Source of the DNA: a virus
Lineage: Duplodnaviria; Heunggongvirae; Uroviricota; Caudoviricetes
DNA length: 12,885 nucleotides
Virus record (IMG/VR): IMGVR_UViG_2657245081_000004
Strand: one strand, 5' to 3'
Position numbers and translations under genes: made by a program
Notes under the pieces: generated by a model
The model's input: the letters and a program-made list of their open reading frames with translations, nothing else
Told to the model about the DNA's origin: nothing
Databases searched by the model: none
In this document: one piece after another, positions 1 through 12,490 of the stretch
Layout of the letters: every line of letters begins with the position of its first letter
Position numbering within the stretch: position 1 is the stretch's first letter

Positions 1-1392
1 TCAAGAATAGCCGCAAAATGTTGTCATTACAACAAGGCGGCTATATGACGCTCGCGCAGNNNNNNNNNNTCCAGACTCATAGCGGGATAAAAGCTGACCG
101 TTCGGATCAACCGCCAGTGCATCCCTGTAATGCTCCCGAACCCTCTGAGCTTTTTCGCTGACACTCATCGCTGTGAATNNNNNNNNNNACATCCATTTTC
201 CGTATACCTGAAATACCATTTGCGCATCTGCATGGCCCATCTGGTTTGCTATAAATGCCGGGTTAGCACCAGCTGTCAGCGACCAGCAGGCATAAGTATG
301 TCTCGACTGATATGATTTTCGATGGCGGAGTCCGGCACGTTTTATCGCTGCGTCCCACATCTGCCTTATTGAGTCAACGGTAAAATGGTCACCATAATTT
401 TTTACTCTCGCTGACACTTCAGGTTGAAAAACAAAGGTGCATTTATGTTTTTCTGTTCTGCCATACTCTCTGAGGTGAACATCAATGATATGCTCTTTGC
501 TCAGTCTCGTTAATGTCATCTGACTCCGGAGAGCGTCGATTGCTGGCTTAATAAGATGAATGACCCGATTGGTTCCCGCCTGTGTTTTTGGTACCGTGAA
601 ACGGTCTTTTGCTAAATTTCTCCTGATCATCATTGTTCCATTTTTCAGATCTATGTCCTCCCATCCAAGTGCACACAGCTCACCAGGGCGAACGCCAGTA
701 TAAACAGAAACACACCATAAATTTTTGGCTTGCTGATTTCTGCACGCATCGATAAGACGGATGAATTCCTCCCGCGAAAGAGGATCCGGAATGGTTCTTG
801 ATTCCTTTAATGGCGAGATCCCCTTAAACGGGTTATCTGCCAGGTAACCGTTATCAACACCAAACTGGAACACGGCGTTAAGATTTGTCATGTAATTATT
901 TACAGTTACAGCCGATCTCCCTGGTTGTGTAACAATATAGTTACTTTTGGGGATCTGGTATCCAGTCAGTAGCTCTTTACGAACCTCCAGTAATTTTTCT
1001 TTATTAATCGATGAGGCAAGATTTTTTTCACCGATTATGCTCAGGATATTTTTGATGACGGCACGGTATGTGTTGAGTGATGTTTTTGCGACTTCAGTTT
1101 CTTTCAGTGCCAGAAATTTTTCAGCCAGTTCTTTTATGGTTAAATCTTGTCGGGTCTCACCAAATTTTTCCAGATTGCGTGAGGAGGGAAACTGTTTTGC
1201 ATAGTCGAAAACACCAGTTTTTATTGCGTAACAAACAGAGGCGCGTAGCTCACCTGCAACGCGCCTGTTTTTTGCTGTGTCAGGAACCCCCAGGTTTTCC
1301 CTGACTCTTACGCCTTTATAAACAAACCAGATACGTAATTTCCCTCCATGGTTTTCCACGCCTGTCGGATATTTCATTTCAATTTCTCTCAT
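1..1392 (-). CDS. int: Phage integrase, tyrosine recombinase family (463 codons; two 10-nt N runs inside the 3' end)
   Basis: Translation has integrase catalytic-domain motifs (RHTYACWSL...MGHADAQMVFQVYGKW with the putative nucleophile Tyr). Frame is kept across both N runs and the stop is at 1-3. Alternative start at 1377 (MKYPTG...) has a slightly better purine-rich upstream region. Confidence 0.85.
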   Translation of the reverse strand: MREIEMKYPTGVENHGGKLRIWFVYKGVRVRENLGVPDTAKNRRVAGELRASVCYAIKTGVFDYAKQFPSSRNLEKFGETRQDLTIKELAEKFLALKETEVAKTSLNTYRAVIKNILSIIGEKNLASSINKEKLLEVRKELLTGYQIPKSNYIVTQPGRSAVTVNNYMTNLNAVFQFGVDNGYLADNPFKGISPLKESRTIPDPLSREEFIRLIDACRNQQAKNLWCVSVYTGVRPGELCALGWEDIDLKNGTMMIRRNLAKDRFTVPKTQAGTNRVIHLIKPAIDALRSQMTLTRLSKEHIIDVHLREYGRTEKHKCTFVFQPEVSARVKNYGDHFTVDSIRQMWDAAIKRAGLRHRKSYQSRHTYACWSLTAGANPAFIANQMGHADAQMVFQVYGKWMXXXXFTAMSVSEKAQRVREHYRDALAVDPNGQLLSRYESGXXXXARASYSRLVVMTTFCGYS

Positions 1393-4845: not shown

Positions 4846-4903
4846 AAAAAGGGCGGCAGAGCAGTCACGGAGTAAAACTGATACCGCCAAACGTCACCAG
4901 AAA
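4846..4903 (-). ncRNA. dicF: DicF small RNA (ftsZ-targeting) with its intrinsic terminator
   Basis: Minus-strand sequence UUUCUGGUGACGUUUGGCGGUAUCAGUUUUACUCCGUGACUGCUCUGCCGCCCUUUUU matches remembered DicF; ends in a GGCGG/CCGCC stem plus U5. Confidence 0.85.
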
Positions 4904-7452: not shown

Positions 7453-7523
7453 CTGACAATAGCCATATCGAATCGCTTCCGGCAACTCGTGAGTAAAAAG
7501 ATTCGGTATCAGAAGAGGTGAGT

Positions 7524-8594
7524 ATGGCTAACGCCTGGCTCAGATTATGGCATGACATGCCAAATGACCCTAAGTGGCGAACAATTGCCAGGGTGTCAGG
7601 GCAGCCAATTGCAACAGTGATGGCAGTGTATATCCACCTCCTGGTGAGCGCGTCACGAAATGTCACGCGAGGTCACATTGATGTCACGACAGAAGATTTG
7701 GCAAGTGCGCTCGACGTGACAGAAGAGGTAATTGATTCAATTTTGCAGACGATGCAGGGGCGGGTACTTGATGGTGATTTAATCACTGGATGGGAAAAAC
7801 GCCAGGTGCTGAAAGAGGACAACGGCAATATTTCGCAAACCGCAAAATCTCCGGCAGAGCGCAAGAGGGCGCAGCGAGAGAGGGAAAGAAAGCGGGAACA
7901 AAATGGCGATTGTCACGGCGCGTCACGAAATGTCACGCACATGTCACGACGAGTCACGACAGATAAAGATACAGATAAAGATACAGATCAAGAAGATCAA
8001 AACACTATGGTCCATGGCGTAAAAAACGCCACGAACCAGGCAGGGGATGTTCAGACCGTCAATCCTGGTCAGCCAGCAGGCACGACACCGGAAGCCGATT
8101 CAGCGTATGCGCTGAAAGCCGATTCGGGCGCTGTGCAGCAGGTGATGACCCCAAGGCCGGAGCAATCACACCAACTGCAGCAGCCTGAAGCCGATTCCGC
8201 CATTCAGCGGGAAGCCGATCGGGTAGTCCCGGAAAACACCGGGCTGTCTGTGGGACGAGTGGATTATCCGGATGTGTTCGAACAGGTCTGGCGGGAGTAC
8301 CCGTTGCGTGCCGGAGCAAACCCGAAGAAATCCGCTTTCAGTGCCTGGAAGGCCAGATTACGCGAGGGGGTGCCACCAGAGGCCATGCTGGATGGCGTGA
8401 GGCGTTACGCAAGATACTTGGCGGCTACCGGGAAAACGGGAACGGAATTTGTTCAGCGAGCGACGACGTTTTTTGGACCGGACCGGAATTTTGAGAACCC
8501 CTGGTTGCTCCCGGTAAGCGGCACGAACAACCAGCGTTGTGTGAATCATATTTCTGAACCGGATACCGAAATTCCACCGGGCTTCAGGGGGTAA
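7524..8594 (+). CDS. Phage replication initiation protein (O-like N-terminal region; C-terminal domain resembling DnaT)
   Basis: GAGG 5 nt upstream of ATG 7524; iteron arrays lie inside the gene as in lambda O; C-terminal region (VDYPDVFEQVWREYPL...FVQRATTFFGPDRNF) recalled as DnaT-like. Confidence 0.65.
   Translation: MANAWLRLWHDMPNDPKWRTIARVSGQPIATVMAVYIHLLVSASRNVTRGHIDVTTEDLASALDVTEEVIDSILQTMQGRVLDGDLITGWEKRQVLKEDNGNISQTAKSPAERKRAQRERERKREQNGDCHGASRNVTHMSRRVTTDKDTDKDTDQEDQNTMVHGVKNATNQAGDVQTVNPGQPAGTTPEADSAYALKADSGAVQQVMTPRPEQSHQLQQPEADSAIQREADRVVPENTGLSVGRVDYPDVFEQVWREYPLRAGANPKKSAFSAWKARLREGVPPEAMLDGVRRYARYLAATGKTGTEFVQRATTFFGPDRNFENPWLLPVSGTNNQRCVNHISEPDTEIPPGFRG
7648..7688. repeat. 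Iteron cluster 1: four GTCACG/GTCAC repeats at about 10-bp spacing
   Basis: GTCACG at 7652, 7662, 7683 and GTCAC at 7672; contains the 21-mer GCGCGTCACGAAATGTCACGC that recurs exactly at 7918-7938. Confidence 0.7.
7912..8003. repeat. Iteron cluster 2 (five GTCACG repeats at 10-11 bp spacing) followed by an AT-rich tandem repeat; putative origin of replication
   Basis: GTCACG at 7912, 7922, 7932, 7943, 7953; then AGATAAAGATACAGATAAAGATACAGATCAAGAAGATCAA. Iterons plus an AT-rich tract inside the initiator gene is the lambda ori layout. Confidence 0.65.
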
Positions 8595-8634
8595 GTGTTG
8601 ATTTCTGGTCATGAGGTAATTTTCAGGAGGGCTT

Positions 8635-9057
8635 GTGGCAAAAGTTTTTACACAAGAAGAGCGAGAAAAAATTAAAGGGCAGGTTGTTGAACTCGTACGC
8701 CAGAGTGGGCGTGAGACGTTACGGCAACTGGAAGTCAAGACAGGTGCGACAAGATATCTGATGAGCGTTCTCGCAAGAGAGCTGGTTGCCAGCGGCGATG
8801 TATACAACTCCGGCTACGGGTTATTCCCCTCTGAACAGGCGCGTAAGGACTGGCAAAACGCCCGCAAAAAACTCTCGAGGGCAAAGGTGAAGAAACCTGC
8901 TGTGGTTGATCCGGACCTTATCTGGTCATCACCTGACGGAGAAATACGTCGCTACGACAGTCGCCTAAACATAATCTGTCGCGAGTGCCGGAAGAGTGAA
9001 GCTATGCAGCGTGTACTGGCTTTCTATCAGGGTAATTTTCAGGAGGCGGTACTGTGA
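8635..9057 (+). CDS. Hypothetical protein (140 aa), GTG start
   Basis: AGGAGG 4 nt upstream of GTG 8635; unrecognised; flanked by a 16-bp direct repeat. Confidence 0.55.
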   Translation: MAKVFTQEEREKIKGQVVELVRQSGRETLRQLEVKTGATRYLMSVLARELVASGDVYNSGYGLFPSEQARKDWQNARKKLSRAKVKKPAVVDPDLIWSSPDGEIRRYDSRLNIICRECRKSEAMQRVLAFYQGNFQEAVL

Positions 9058-9114
9058 GTGAAATTAGCTATCAGGCTTCAATTACCGCTGGCATTCGCAT
9101 CAAAGGAGAGGAGC

Positions 9115-9471
9115 ATGGAAATAAAACCAGAGGATGAGTTAAGCAATATCGTTTTATTTCCGGTAAAAGAGGATGACCCTCGTAATCAGGTTAATTTTCT
9201 TTATGAGCCATCGGAAAGACCATATTGTCATCACGCCTCTGTCCGGGTTGACGAAAAAGAGCGTCAGGTCCGCTGTAAAATCTGCGGTGCAGTTGTGGAG
9301 CCATTTGACTGGATGCTCTCTGTGGCGAAAAGAGAAACCAGACTGGCAGATGATGTAAGGCTCTTGCGTCAGGAGGAGCGGGAAAGGCGAAAAAATATAG
9401 AAAAGCTAATTCAGATTGAGCGTAACGCGAAAGCGCGGATACGCAGGGCGACAAAATCCAGAACTGAATAA
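9115..9471 (+). CDS. Hypothetical protein (118 aa) with possible zinc-ribbon motif (CHH...CKICG) and basic C-terminal tail
   Basis: GGAGAGGAG upstream of ATG 9115; alternative GTG start at 9058 would add 19 aa. Confidence 0.55.
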   Translation: MEIKPEDELSNIVLFPVKEDDPRNQVNFLYEPSERPYCHHASVRVDEKERQVRCKICGAVVEPFDWMLSVAKRETRLADDVRLLRQEERERRKNIEKLIQIERNAKARIRRATKSRTE

Positions 9472-9564
9472 TTAAATTTAGCTCTGTTAAAAATTTAATC
9501 CTTAACCGGAGGGATTTCTGCACCCTCAGAACATCAGGAGGCCGCCCGAAAGGGCGGTAGTTAA

Positions 9565-9747
9565 ATGCGAAAGTTTAAAATAATTATTGAAACGGGAATA
9601 GCCGGTGGAGATTTCGAGGATGAATTCGAAGTGGATGATGATGCGACGCCTGATGAAATACATGACGAAGCAAAAGATATTTTCTTTAACTACTGCAATT
9701 ACTCATATCACGAAATAAAAGACGAAGAGGAAGAACAAAATGGCTGA
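9565..9747 (+). CDS. Small highly acidic protein (60 aa; about 20 Asp/Glu, 5 basic)
   Basis: Composition counted by hand; the Shine-Dalgarno AGGAG at 9536-9540 is separated from the ATG by a GAAA-tetraloop hairpin (9541-9558). Confidence 0.5.
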   Translation: MRKFKIIIETGIAGGDFEDEFEVDDDATPDEIHDEAKDIFFNYCNYSYHEIKDEEEEQNG

Positions 9748-9916
9748 TTTTGGTTCAACTAAATACAACGTCAGTTTTGAAGAATGGCATGAACTGTTAA
9801 TGGACTATGCAGAGTTACGTGGTGGCAGTGCTGCTGATGCTGAAGCATGGCGTGATGATTATGAAGCAGGAAAAACTCCGGTCGAAGCATATTGTGATGA
9901 GTGGGGCGATGAATGA
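9740..9916 (+). CDS. Small acidic protein (58 aa), translationally coupled to the preceding acidic ORF
   Basis: Hand translation MADFGSTKYNVSFEEWHELLMDYAELRGGSAADAEAWRDDYEAGKTPVEAYCDEWGDE; GAGGAAG 8 nt upstream; start overlaps the upstream stop by 8 nt. Not in the ORF track (below cutoff). Confidence 0.5.
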   Translation: MADFGSTKYNVSFEEWHELLMDYAELRGGSAADAEAWRDDYEAGKTPVEAYCDEWGDE

Positions 9917-9974
9917 GCGAGGTTAATTATCAGGAAGGGCATGAAACGGCGGGGCAAGCAAAAACAGTGGCATG

Positions 9975-10229
9975 GCGATATCGCTACGTGAAAAAAAAGG
10001 CGTTACGGACTTTCAGGGGAAGTAGTGGTCTGGTGACTGGAAATATGTACCGAAAAAAGAGGATTGTAACGACAGGCCGAACTATGAAATTCAGGCCTTA
10101 TTCACTGCCCCGCCAGTCCCGGTTACATCAGAAGAACTGGTTAAAGCTGTGCACTTTTATGAACAACTAAAACGCGAAAATCCACCAGCATCCGGAAACC
10201 TGATTACAGATTCCCAGATAAGGCAATGA
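9975..10229 (+). pseudogene. Interrupted ORF: 17 codons from ATG 9975, in-frame TAG at 10023-10025, then 67 sense codons with no start codon
   Basis: The frame reads MAISLREKKGVTDFQGK, TAG, then WSGDWKYVPKKEDCNDRPNYEIQALFTAPPVPVTSEELVKAVHFYEQLKRENPPASGNLITDSQIRQ. The track ORF 9913..10170 is in another frame and is basic and low-complexity. Confidence 0.35.
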
Positions 10230-10399
10230 GCTACCTGGCGCAGAACGGGCTGATAAGTATGGGGAATGTTTTACGATGAATATTTAGACTAAAGAGTTTG
10301 TAACGCTATGTAAGTGATTTTTTCTGGTTTAGATATTTATATGTCCGGCCAAATTGAGGTGTGTTTAAATGTAATTGCACATTGATTGTAGGAGGAATA

Positions 10400-10579
10400 A
10401 TGAAAAACGCATTGCAGTTTTTGTTTGTTGCGTTCTGGTTGTTCGTATCATGTATGCCCATCATCTTCACAGCAAGGTATATGGAAAAAGTTGATGTTTT
10501 GATATTAATATTTGGATATATAAATGCCCTTTTTTTAGGGGTGTTCATGGCGGTCATGTGCATTGAATACTGGCGGTAA
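10400..10579 (+). CDS. Small hydrophobic protein (59 aa) with two predicted transmembrane helices, in an AT-rich island
   Basis: MKNALQFLFVAFWLFVSCMPIIFTARYMEKVDVLILIFGYINALFLGVFMAVMCIEYWR; GGAGG 4 nt upstream of ATG 10400; surrounding DNA (about 10260-10620) is visibly AT-rich. Confidence 0.55.
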   Translation: MKNALQFLFVAFWLFVSCMPIIFTARYMEKVDVLILIFGYINALFLGVFMAVMCIEYWR

Positions 10580-10634
10580 ATACAGCGAACGCCATTGGTT
10601 TAGTTGGATATTTACTGTGCCGGACAAAAACGGT

Positions 10635-10662
10635 TTGCGGGGAAATCTTAGTTAAGTAGAAT
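10635..10662 (+). promoter_or_regulatory. Candidate hok mRNA promoter (TTGCGG-N16-TAGAAT)
   Basis: Hexamers seen in sequence about 170 nt upstream of hok, the distance expected for the long structured hok leader. Confidence 0.3.
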
Positions 10663-10734
10663 GACTGCGGGTGCTTGAGGCTATCTGTCTCAGGCATGAA
10701 CACCAAAAGGCAGATAGAGAAAAGCCCCAGTTAA

Positions 10735-10800
10735 CATTACGCGTCCTGCAAGACGCTTAACATTAATCTGAGGCCATATCTATGCGACACATAGAGATTA
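10735..10800 (-). ncRNA. Putative Sok-like antisense RNA region (approximate bounds)
   Basis: Minus-strand promoter-like TTGACC (complement of 10821-10826), 16-nt spacer, GCTAAT, reading across the mok-like start; position matches hok/sok architecture. Ends not determinable. Confidence 0.35.
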
Positions 10801-10841
10801 GCCTCTTACGGACCGAAAGGTCAAGGAGAAGCAGGCTATGA
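10782..10841 (+). CDS. Short leader ORF (19 aa) ending in ATGA overlap with the hok start; mok-like coupling frame
   Basis: ATG 10782 with GAGG 8 nt upstream; stop TGA overlaps the hok ATG. Confidence 0.35.
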   Translation: MRHIEISLLRTERSRRSRL

Positions 10842-10993
10842 AGCAGCAAAAGGCGATGTTAATCGCCCTGATCGTCATCTGTTTAACCGTCATAGTGACG
10901 GCACTGGTAACGAGGAAAGACCTCTGCGAGGTACGAATCCGAACCGGCCAGACGGAGGTCGCTGTCTTCACAGCTTACGAACCTGAGGAGTAA
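10838..10993 (+). CDS. hokD: Hok-family type I toxin (51 aa), HokD/RelF-like
   Basis: Hand translation MKQQKAMLIALIVICLTVIVTALVTRKDLCEVRIRTGQTEVAVFTAYEPEE matches remembered HokD; not in the ORF track (below cutoff). Confidence 0.85.
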   Translation: MKQQKAMLIALIVICLTVIVTALVTRKDLCEVRIRTGQTEVAVFTAYEPEE

Positions 10994-11062
10994 GAGACCT
11001 GGCGGGGGAGAAATCCCTCGCCACCTCTGATGTGTCAGGCATCCTCAACGCACCCGCACGTA

Positions 11063-11088
11063 ACCCGCTTCGGCGGGTTTTGTTTTTT
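11063..11088 (+). terminator. Rho-independent terminator downstream of hok
   Basis: ACCCGC-TTCG-GCGGGT hairpin followed by TTTTGTTTTTT. A 9-bp GAAA-tetraloop hairpin lies upstream at 11002-11023. Confidence 0.7.
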
Positions 11089-11440: not shown

Positions 11441-12490
11441 GTGCGGGTATTACTTCGACCTGTTCTGGTACCGGAACTCGGGGTGGTGATCGTTAAGCCG
11501 GGCCGTGAATCCATGCCGGTATTCCACAATACCCGGGTACTGGTGGAGCCGGAACCGAAAAGCATGCGTAATCTGCCGTCCGGGGTCGTTCCTGCCGTTC
11601 GCCAGCCGCTGGTGGAAGACAAAACATTGCTGCCGTTTTTCAGTAACGCACGGGTGATTCGTGCTGCTGGTGGTGCTGGTGCATTGTCTGACTGGCTGTT
11701 GCGCCATATTAAATCCTGCCAGTGGCCACACGGCGATTATCACCACAGTGAAACCGTCATTCACCGTTATGGTACCGGCGCAATGGTGTTGTGCTGGCAC
11801 TGCGACAACCAGCTGCGTGACCAGACATCCGAATCACTCGAGCAACTTGCTCATCAAAACCTGTCAGCATGGATGATTGACGTCATCGGTCACGCAATAA
11901 GCGGTACGCAGGAGCGTGAATTATCTCTGGCTGAATTATCCTGGTGGGCGGTCCGAAATCAGGTGGCGGATGCGCTACCTGAAGCGGTATTACGTCGCTC
12001 GCTGGGATTACCAGCGGAAAAAATCCGCTCAATGTACCGCGAAAGCGACATCGTACCGGGAGAGCAGACCGCCACCAGCATATTGAAACAGCGCACAAAA
12101 AATCTTGCACTGTTGCCTCACGCCCACCAGGAACAACACCCACTACAGGAAAGGACGGTGGTAAGCATCACCGTTGATCCTGAGTCTCCGGAATCTTTCA
12201 TGAAGCTACCTAAACGTCGCCGCTGGGTTAAGGAGAAATACACTCGCTGGGTGAAGACACAGCCGTGTGCTTGCTGCGGTATGCCAGCCGACGATCCGCA
12301 TCATCTGATTGGTCACGGGCAGGGCGGAATGGGAACCAAAGCACATGATCTTTTTGTGTTGCCTTTATGCAGAAAGCATCACGACGAACTGCATACGGAT
12401 ACCGTGGCATTTGAAGAGAAGTATGGCTCCCAACTGGAGCTGATTTTTCGATTTATCGATCACGCGCTGGCAATTGGTGTGCTGGCCTAA
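11441..12490 (+). CDS. ydfU: YdfU-like protein (DUF968), 349 aa, with HNH-like Cys/His cluster near the C-terminus
   Basis: GTG start with GGAGG upstream; C-terminal [21 protein letters not shown]...CRKHHDELH motif; position between rem-like gene and Q matches Qin. Confidence 0.7.

Follow-up and report, generated by a model that had tools for sequence, protein, structure and literature searches.

ORF60 and ORF58, two small and strongly acidic reading frames in the early region of an Escherichia coli prophage, are real genes under purifying selection, and sequence comparison places them as typical members of two catalogued families without assigned function. The two families are mutually unrelated, and by the same comparison ORF60 and ORF58 are independent accessory genes that have been joined into a single cassette. 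Both proteins may plausibly act as inhibitors or in anti-defence.

The window, by which we mean the whole 12,885-nucleotide stretch of DNA that was analyzed, corresponds to the early region of a Rac-like lambdoid E. coli prophage. When an 851-bp query spanning both ORFs was compared with 5426 complete E. coli genomes, 2699 matched, many at 100% identity. Strain WB61 carries the region between ompW and the trp operon, as part of a Rac-type prophage that has decayed. The cassette and its surroundings are arranged as follows:

5′ of 7518, plus strand: cro/cII-like genes
7518–8594, plus strand: replication initiator gene (phrog_3729)
8635–9057, plus strand: DUF977/Ren-like gene
9115–9471, plus strand: gene for a 118-residue zinc-ribbon protein
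9536–9541, plus strand: Shine–Dalgarno sequence AGGAGG, read from the sequence, 23 nt 5′ of the ORF60 ATG
9541–9558, plus strand: predicted GC-rich hairpin with a GAAA tetraloop, found in the minimum free energy and centroid folds
9565–9916, plus strand: ORF60 and ORF58 together
9565–9747, plus strand: ORF60, with an ATG start, 60 residues, DUF7167/PHROG 1997
9740–9916, plus strand: ORF58, 58 residues with a Trp/Tyr-rich core, PHROG 519, without a Pfam family
9913–10229, plus strand: phrog_660 pseudogene
10669–10993, plus strand: sok/hokD
11441–12490, plus strand: DUF968 gene
12493 onward, plus strand: Q-like antiterminator gene

An earlier note on this DNA had placed the two acidic genes just downstream of the replication module, and this holds, with the replication initiator, Ren-like and zinc-ribbon genes all upstream. 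No terminator was predicted on the plus strand from 8500 to 11,062. The zinc-ribbon protein belongs to phrog_1621, has a CxxC...CxxC arrangement and gives a weak match to the TFIIB zinc ribbon. Its gene accompanies the cassette at most loci, that in pL of the Stx phage ArgO145 among them; in some Rac-like prophages it is replaced, directly upstream of the cassette, by a gene for a class I SAM-dependent methyltransferase, as in E. coli 1303 (L104, 745–1173).

Position 9536, given in the earlier note as the start of the pair, is not a codon: it is where the AGGAGG ribosome-binding site begins. The reading frames do overlap, as the note had said; the overlap is 8 nt (ATGGCTGA), and ORF58 in turn overlaps the following ORF by ATGA. 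Both proteins had been described as about one third Asp/Glu with few basic residues. This is accurate for ORF60, in which 20 of the 60 residues are D/E (33.3%) and 5 are K/R, for a net charge of −15 and a pI of 4.05. ORF58, with 16 D/E among its 58 residues (27.6%), falls slightly below one third; its basic content is as small as described (4 K/R; net charge −12). Of the window's 49 Met-initiated ORFs with 50 residues or more, the two nevertheless rank first and second in D/E fraction, the next having a fraction of 0.21.

Comparison with an E. coli allele of 93% identity gave 10 synonymous against 3 non-synonymous differences for ORF60 and 8 against 2 for ORF58, corresponding to a pN/pS of ~0.06 for each gene. 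It is this ratio, together with the homologues in distant phages described below, which in Ackermannviridae and in phages of Pseudomonas, Klebsiella and Enterococcus have 37–60% identity, that identifies both ORFs as real genes.

ORF60 is annotated in RefSeq as a ‘DUF7167 family protein’, and the Pfam scan agrees: the PF23768 (DUF7167) model, for which the cutoff is 24.4 bits, matched with 55.1 bits, with ORF60 residues 2–53 aligned to model positions 1–60, and phrog_1997 matched with an E-value of 9e-31. A DUF7167 profile search returned 176 proteins. The 120 of these that were listed were all short, mostly 55–60 residues, and no multi-domain fusion was found among them. DUF7167 is a standalone phage or prophage protein of about 55–60 residues, and ORF60, which shares the family pattern MRxFxVxIET...FEVxDDAT...CNY, is a typical member without differences. 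Relatives with 37–70% identity were found in temperate and virulent Klebsiella phages, Enterococcus Herelleviridae, a Pseudomonas phage and large Escherichia phages. We found no characterized function for any DUF7167 member, and a literature search for DUF7167 and the RefSeq accessions returned no paper naming either. An AlphaFold2 model built from a 30-sequence alignment (mean pLDDT 86.6) consists of a β-hairpin (strands at residues 2–8 and 17–23), a helix (29–43) and a short C-terminal element, and the chain ends in a poly-Glu tail.

ORF58 is a ‘hypothetical protein’ in RefSeq. It matched phrog_519 with an E-value of 4.5e-23 and is a member of that family, which 42 of 42 ORF58 relatives also matched. 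Pfam and NCBIfam scans gave no family for ORF58, and no Pfam family was shared by the 42 members tested. The family is recognized by the motif W..L...A...G.s.aD..AW..DY..GktP.eA..eW. Relatives with 47–61% identity occur in about 200 phage records, mostly Ackermannviridae, exemplified by Cba120 orf183. An exhaustive profile search retrieved only 82 matches among 1.8 billion cluster representatives; nearly all were standalone proteins of 50–65 residues, and the few longer ones carry unrelated N-terminal extensions. ORF58 covers only positions 76–137 of the 143-position PHROG 519 profile. The N-terminal half of that profile is not ORF60, which has no phrog_519 match, and no ORF60-like half is hidden in the longer phrog_519 homologues, since the N-termini of four of them (P0201, P0239, P0253 and P0230) are unrelated to it. 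The AlphaFold2 model of ORF58, from 42 sequences (pLDDT 86.9), is a three-helix bundle with helices at residues 13–27, 34–42 and 47–55. W16 and W37 are near-invariant and positions 41 and 55 are conserved aromatics; these four residues probably form the core.

PHROG 519 has been predicted by PaCRISPR to be an anti-CRISPR in Kuttervirus genomes, a machine-learning score and as such a prediction alone (PMC9409062). Our literature search on phrog_519 function found nothing beyond this prediction. The arrangement of an anti-CRISPR operon is not seen in the window: there is no aca-like gene with a helix-turn-helix (HTH) 3′ of ORF58, where the phrog_660 pseudogene is found instead.

The strong acidity is a family trait in both cases. 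For 30 DUF7167 homologues, the median D/E content is 30% and the median net charge −13; for 42 members of the ORF58 family, the corresponding values are 25% and −10. In ORF60, the acidic positions conserved in more than 70% of members include E9, D19, E22, D24–26, D30, E31, E35, D38 and E50. The model places D30, E31, E35 and D38 on the solvent face of the helix, with I32, A36, I39 and F40 on the opposite face, and in the ORF58 model comparable acidic stripes run along all three helices. These conserved positions fit with a conserved acidic interaction surface on the modeled folds.

Our preferred reading, which we hold tentatively and would rate at somewhat less than an even chance, is that ORF60 and ORF58 are stoichiometric binders of a basic nucleic-acid-binding surface, with a role in host takeover or counter-defence; both the binding mode and the target are what we infer. 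Two unrelated and independently mobile accessory genes have been joined in E. coli lambdoid prophages as a translationally coupled cassette with its own strong Shine–Dalgarno sequence and a conserved hairpin. The cassette would be transcribed within the early rightward operon, 3′ of the replication genes, so that its products would be made early. Each protein is predicted as one compact domain, with conserved acidic residues along its exposed surface, and, acting alone, would occupy the basic surface of a protein of the host or of a competitor. That this target is specifically a restriction system or another defence system is unlikely.

Phages are known to encode small, acidic, single-domain inhibitors of this general kind: T7 gp5.9, which acts on RecBCD; T7 Gp2, which acts on RNA polymerase; and φ29 p56, which acts on UDG. 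Like ORF60 and ORF58, these functional analogues are negatively charged proteins of 50–65 residues. The T7 gp5.9 gene adjoins T7’s own exonuclease gene, and the adjacency of DUF7167 genes to exonuclease genes in Klebsiella and Enterococcus phages matches this. Being small and acidic is by itself no proof of an anti-defence role. If either protein does inhibit a defence or DNA-repair protein, a function would be gained for a Pfam DUF or for a 261-member PHROG, and the known compact anti-defence folds would be added to. Both families abound in E. coli prophages and are also present in virulent phages of the therapeutic type (Kuttervirus, Enterococcus Herelleviridae), with homologues in virulent Enterococcus, Klebsiella and Salmonella phages. 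The wider proposition, that DUF7167 and phrog_519 are two hitherto unrecognized families of phage inhibitors, with compact acidic domains, directed against a host defence or DNA-metabolism protein and, separately, that the cassette leader is a case of structure-bridged initiation in a temperate phage, seems to us rather doubtful.

An alternative is that DUF7167, and perhaps ORF58 too, does not inhibit host proteins but serves the DNA replication or recombination enzymes of the phage, as a small modulator or as one of their subunits. In unrelated lytic phages, the DUF7167 gene overlaps either an exonuclease gene (Klebsiella phage VLCpiS11a and Enterococcus phage PBEF129) or a gene for an SNF2 helicase (the metagenomic phages L009 and L100). 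In P22-like prophages it is found 3′ of Dam, Erf and SSB genes, and other DUF7167 neighbors include RecT, GamL and Pol III theta genes. The position of ORF60, 3′ of replication genes, follows the same trend. However, the adjoining enzyme varies between phages, some DUF7167 genes sit amid early genes without known function, and no fused architectures were found among the matches listed. Moreover, in L101 and L102 (3001–3168) a lone DUF7167 homologue lies on the opposite strand within a tail module, the classic arrangement of a moron; the surrounding genes there are Dit-like, sheath-like and tail terminator genes. This variety of contexts argues for an autonomous accessory function. Because a DNA-metabolism neighborhood recurs, the modulator explanation is still live, and we judge it to be unlikely.

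The earlier note had suggested, from composition, that the two proteins might be DNA mimics that block restriction or other host defences, with Ocr and ArdA as the established examples. In this form, one or both would block type I restriction–modification or similar DNA-targeting defences. The conserved negative charge, which is found across both families as would be expected of the DNA-mimic class, favors such an explanation, and so do the early or accessory positions of the genes, in some phages with orphan methyltransferases nearby. The resemblance to Ocr and ArdA goes as far as being small, strongly acidic, encoded by phages or mobile elements, and early, although the expression timing of ORF60 and ORF58 is deduced from their position. 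Ocr (T7 gp0.3) and ArdA form elongated dimers that mimic a length of B-DNA. In Ocr, an all-helical dimer, the carboxylates follow the path of the phosphate backbone in bent B-DNA; ArdA is a protein of about 165 residues with an elongated three-domain fold, and ORF60 and ORF58 are each one third of that length.

The homology search that the earlier note had proposed, and the predicted folds, gave no positive support to membership in these families. Homology searches linked neither protein to Ocr, ArdA or any PDB entry, whether by sequence or by profile, with nothing at E < 0.1 in the PDB searches, and structure prediction gave compact folds, a hairpin plus helix and a three-helix bundle, that do not resemble the elongated dimers of Ocr and ArdA. 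The PADLOC HMM scan, taken to E-values up to 0.1, had no match for ORF60 or ORF58, so that, with PDB, profile and PADLOC searches all negative, neither protein can be assigned to the Ocr or ArdA family. In Pfam, the only match beyond DUF7167 was a sub-threshold one to AnkX_ins. Taken together, the Pfam, NCBIfam, PHROGs and PADLOC scans yielded just DUF7167 and unannotated PHROGs, and a BFVD search returned uncharacterized phage proteins only. The homology tests also turned up no unrelated characterized function for either protein, which would have spoken against the suggestion. On balance, DNA mimicry of the Ocr/ArdA type is quite unlikely.

The preferred reading has each protein acting alone, and the distribution of the two genes bears on this point. 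The earlier note had called the pair coupled. This is correct for the arrangement, since ORF60 was followed by ORF58 with the same 8-nt overlap in 82 of 82 E. coli-type loci. Of the 5426 complete E. coli genomes, Megablast with the DNA of each gene separately matched 1871 for ORF60 and 1904 for ORF58, about a third in each case. If the two formed an obligate unit, as a heterodimer or a toxin–antitoxin-like pair, this would account for the retained overlap and for these near-equal counts. Outside the E. coli cassette, however, the two families separate. When six-frame translations were searched with profiles, the divergent DUF7167 genes had no ORF58-family gene within 3–4 kb (0 of 9), and the divergent ORF58-family genes had no DUF7167 nearby (0 of 6), so the partners are not kept together in divergent lineages as those of a two-gene toxin–antitoxin system or heterodimer would be. 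In Enterobacter prophages, an ORF58 with 79% identity has an Ead/Ea22 gene upstream instead of ORF60, at either the pL or the nin position. Both proteins are also acidic, unlike typical toxin–antitoxin pairs. Because each family lacks the other outside the E. coli cassette, the functional coupling implied by the note is weakened, and an obligate unit is very improbable. The independent occurrence in divergent loci instead points to two accessory genes joined in one cassette, and the result makes the case for studying ORF60 and ORF58 one at a time, not as a pair.

The cassette as a whole is found at different positions. In ArgO145, an identical cassette, beginning exactly at TCAGGAGG, lies in the ‘ea’ region of pL, where its neighbors are Ead/Ea22 genes, an HNH endonuclease gene, a toxin–antitoxin pair and an orphan methyltransferase gene, whereas in the window it occupies a nin-like region. 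ORF58-family genes repeatedly adjoin Ead/Ea22-like genes, at pL and nin positions alike; the Ead/Ea22 gene is upstream in the Enterobacter prophages (L093–L096, 3999–4177) and downstream in ArgO145 (L005, 4826–5809).

Finally, the possibility that ORF60 and ORF58 are chance or decaying frames without function, to which the pseudogene next in the string and the partial decay of the prophage in many strains might lend some color, is negligible and effectively refuted by the conservation data, namely the low pN/pS and the presence of both families in phages of Gram-positive and Gram-negative hosts, and is further opposed by the confident fold predictions.

In the leader of the cassette, the predicted hairpin lies between the Shine–Dalgarno sequence and the ORF60 start and leaves 6 nt before the ATG. 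It has the form CCGCCC-GAAA-GGGCGG with a closing G·U, giving 7 pairs in 18 nt. The stem is fully paired in 8 of 8 distinct variants, which include one compensatory change of G–C to A–U (L103, strain S51) and two wobble changes, both C to U, although this is a small sample without significance, 64 of 500 shuffles being equally good. An intrinsic terminator can be discarded as an explanation, as the hairpin lacks a T-run and was not called in the terminator scan. In the initiation regions of T4 genes 38 and 25, a hairpin draws a distant Shine–Dalgarno sequence close to the AUG. The cassette leader is alike in that its 23-nt gap between AGGAGG and ATG is filled by a predicted hairpin, and it may, by this analogy, be a structure-bridged translation initiation site, or else repressive. 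AGGAGG is retained in nearly all E. coli-type loci, with a single AGGAAG variant; in three loci (L015, L031 and L048), it has been lost through a 14-nt deletion. The 3′ arm of the hairpin contains a Shine–Dalgarno-like GGCGGU, 6 nt from the ATG, and for this reason the hairpin could repress translation instead. Given GGCGGU in the 3′ arm and the loss of AGGAGG in three loci, the effect of the hairpin could have either sign.

The third gene in the string is flagged in RefSeq (9913..10229) as ‘frameshifted; internal stop’. An 85-residue ORF at 9913–10170 is the remnant of a phrog_660 family gene, intact forms of which, with 171 and 119 residues, are found at other loci. The intact 171-residue form matched phrog_660 with an E-value of 4e-75 and had no Pfam match, HTH families included. 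The pseudogene has a run of 8 A, against about 6 expected for the intact 119-residue form from its protein sequence. This A8 run creates an A AAA AAG heptamer resembling a slippery site of the dnaX type. We considered a programmed −1 frameshift at this heptamer and rejected it, as the −1 frame reaches a TAG 8 codons on, in agreement with the RefSeq annotation. Because the corrected frame hits this TAG, the gene appears to be decayed rather than frameshift-programmed.

Several other features of the window were observed. The antisense sRNA DicF was identified on the minus strand at 4851–4902 (Rfam, 76.7 bits against a gathering score of 48), between a large exonuclease-like gene and the repressor. 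The integrase gene (1–1392, minus strand) is broken in its 3′ part by two runs of 10 N, at 60–69 and 179–188, both of which have the appearance of masking rather than of true sequence. The locus at 10669–10993 is a hok/sok type I toxin–antitoxin system, in which the sok RNA (Rfam, 106.7 bits) overlaps the start of hokD (10838–10993; Pfam HOK_GEF), and a terminator-like hairpin with a T-run is found 3′ of it, at 11062–11079.
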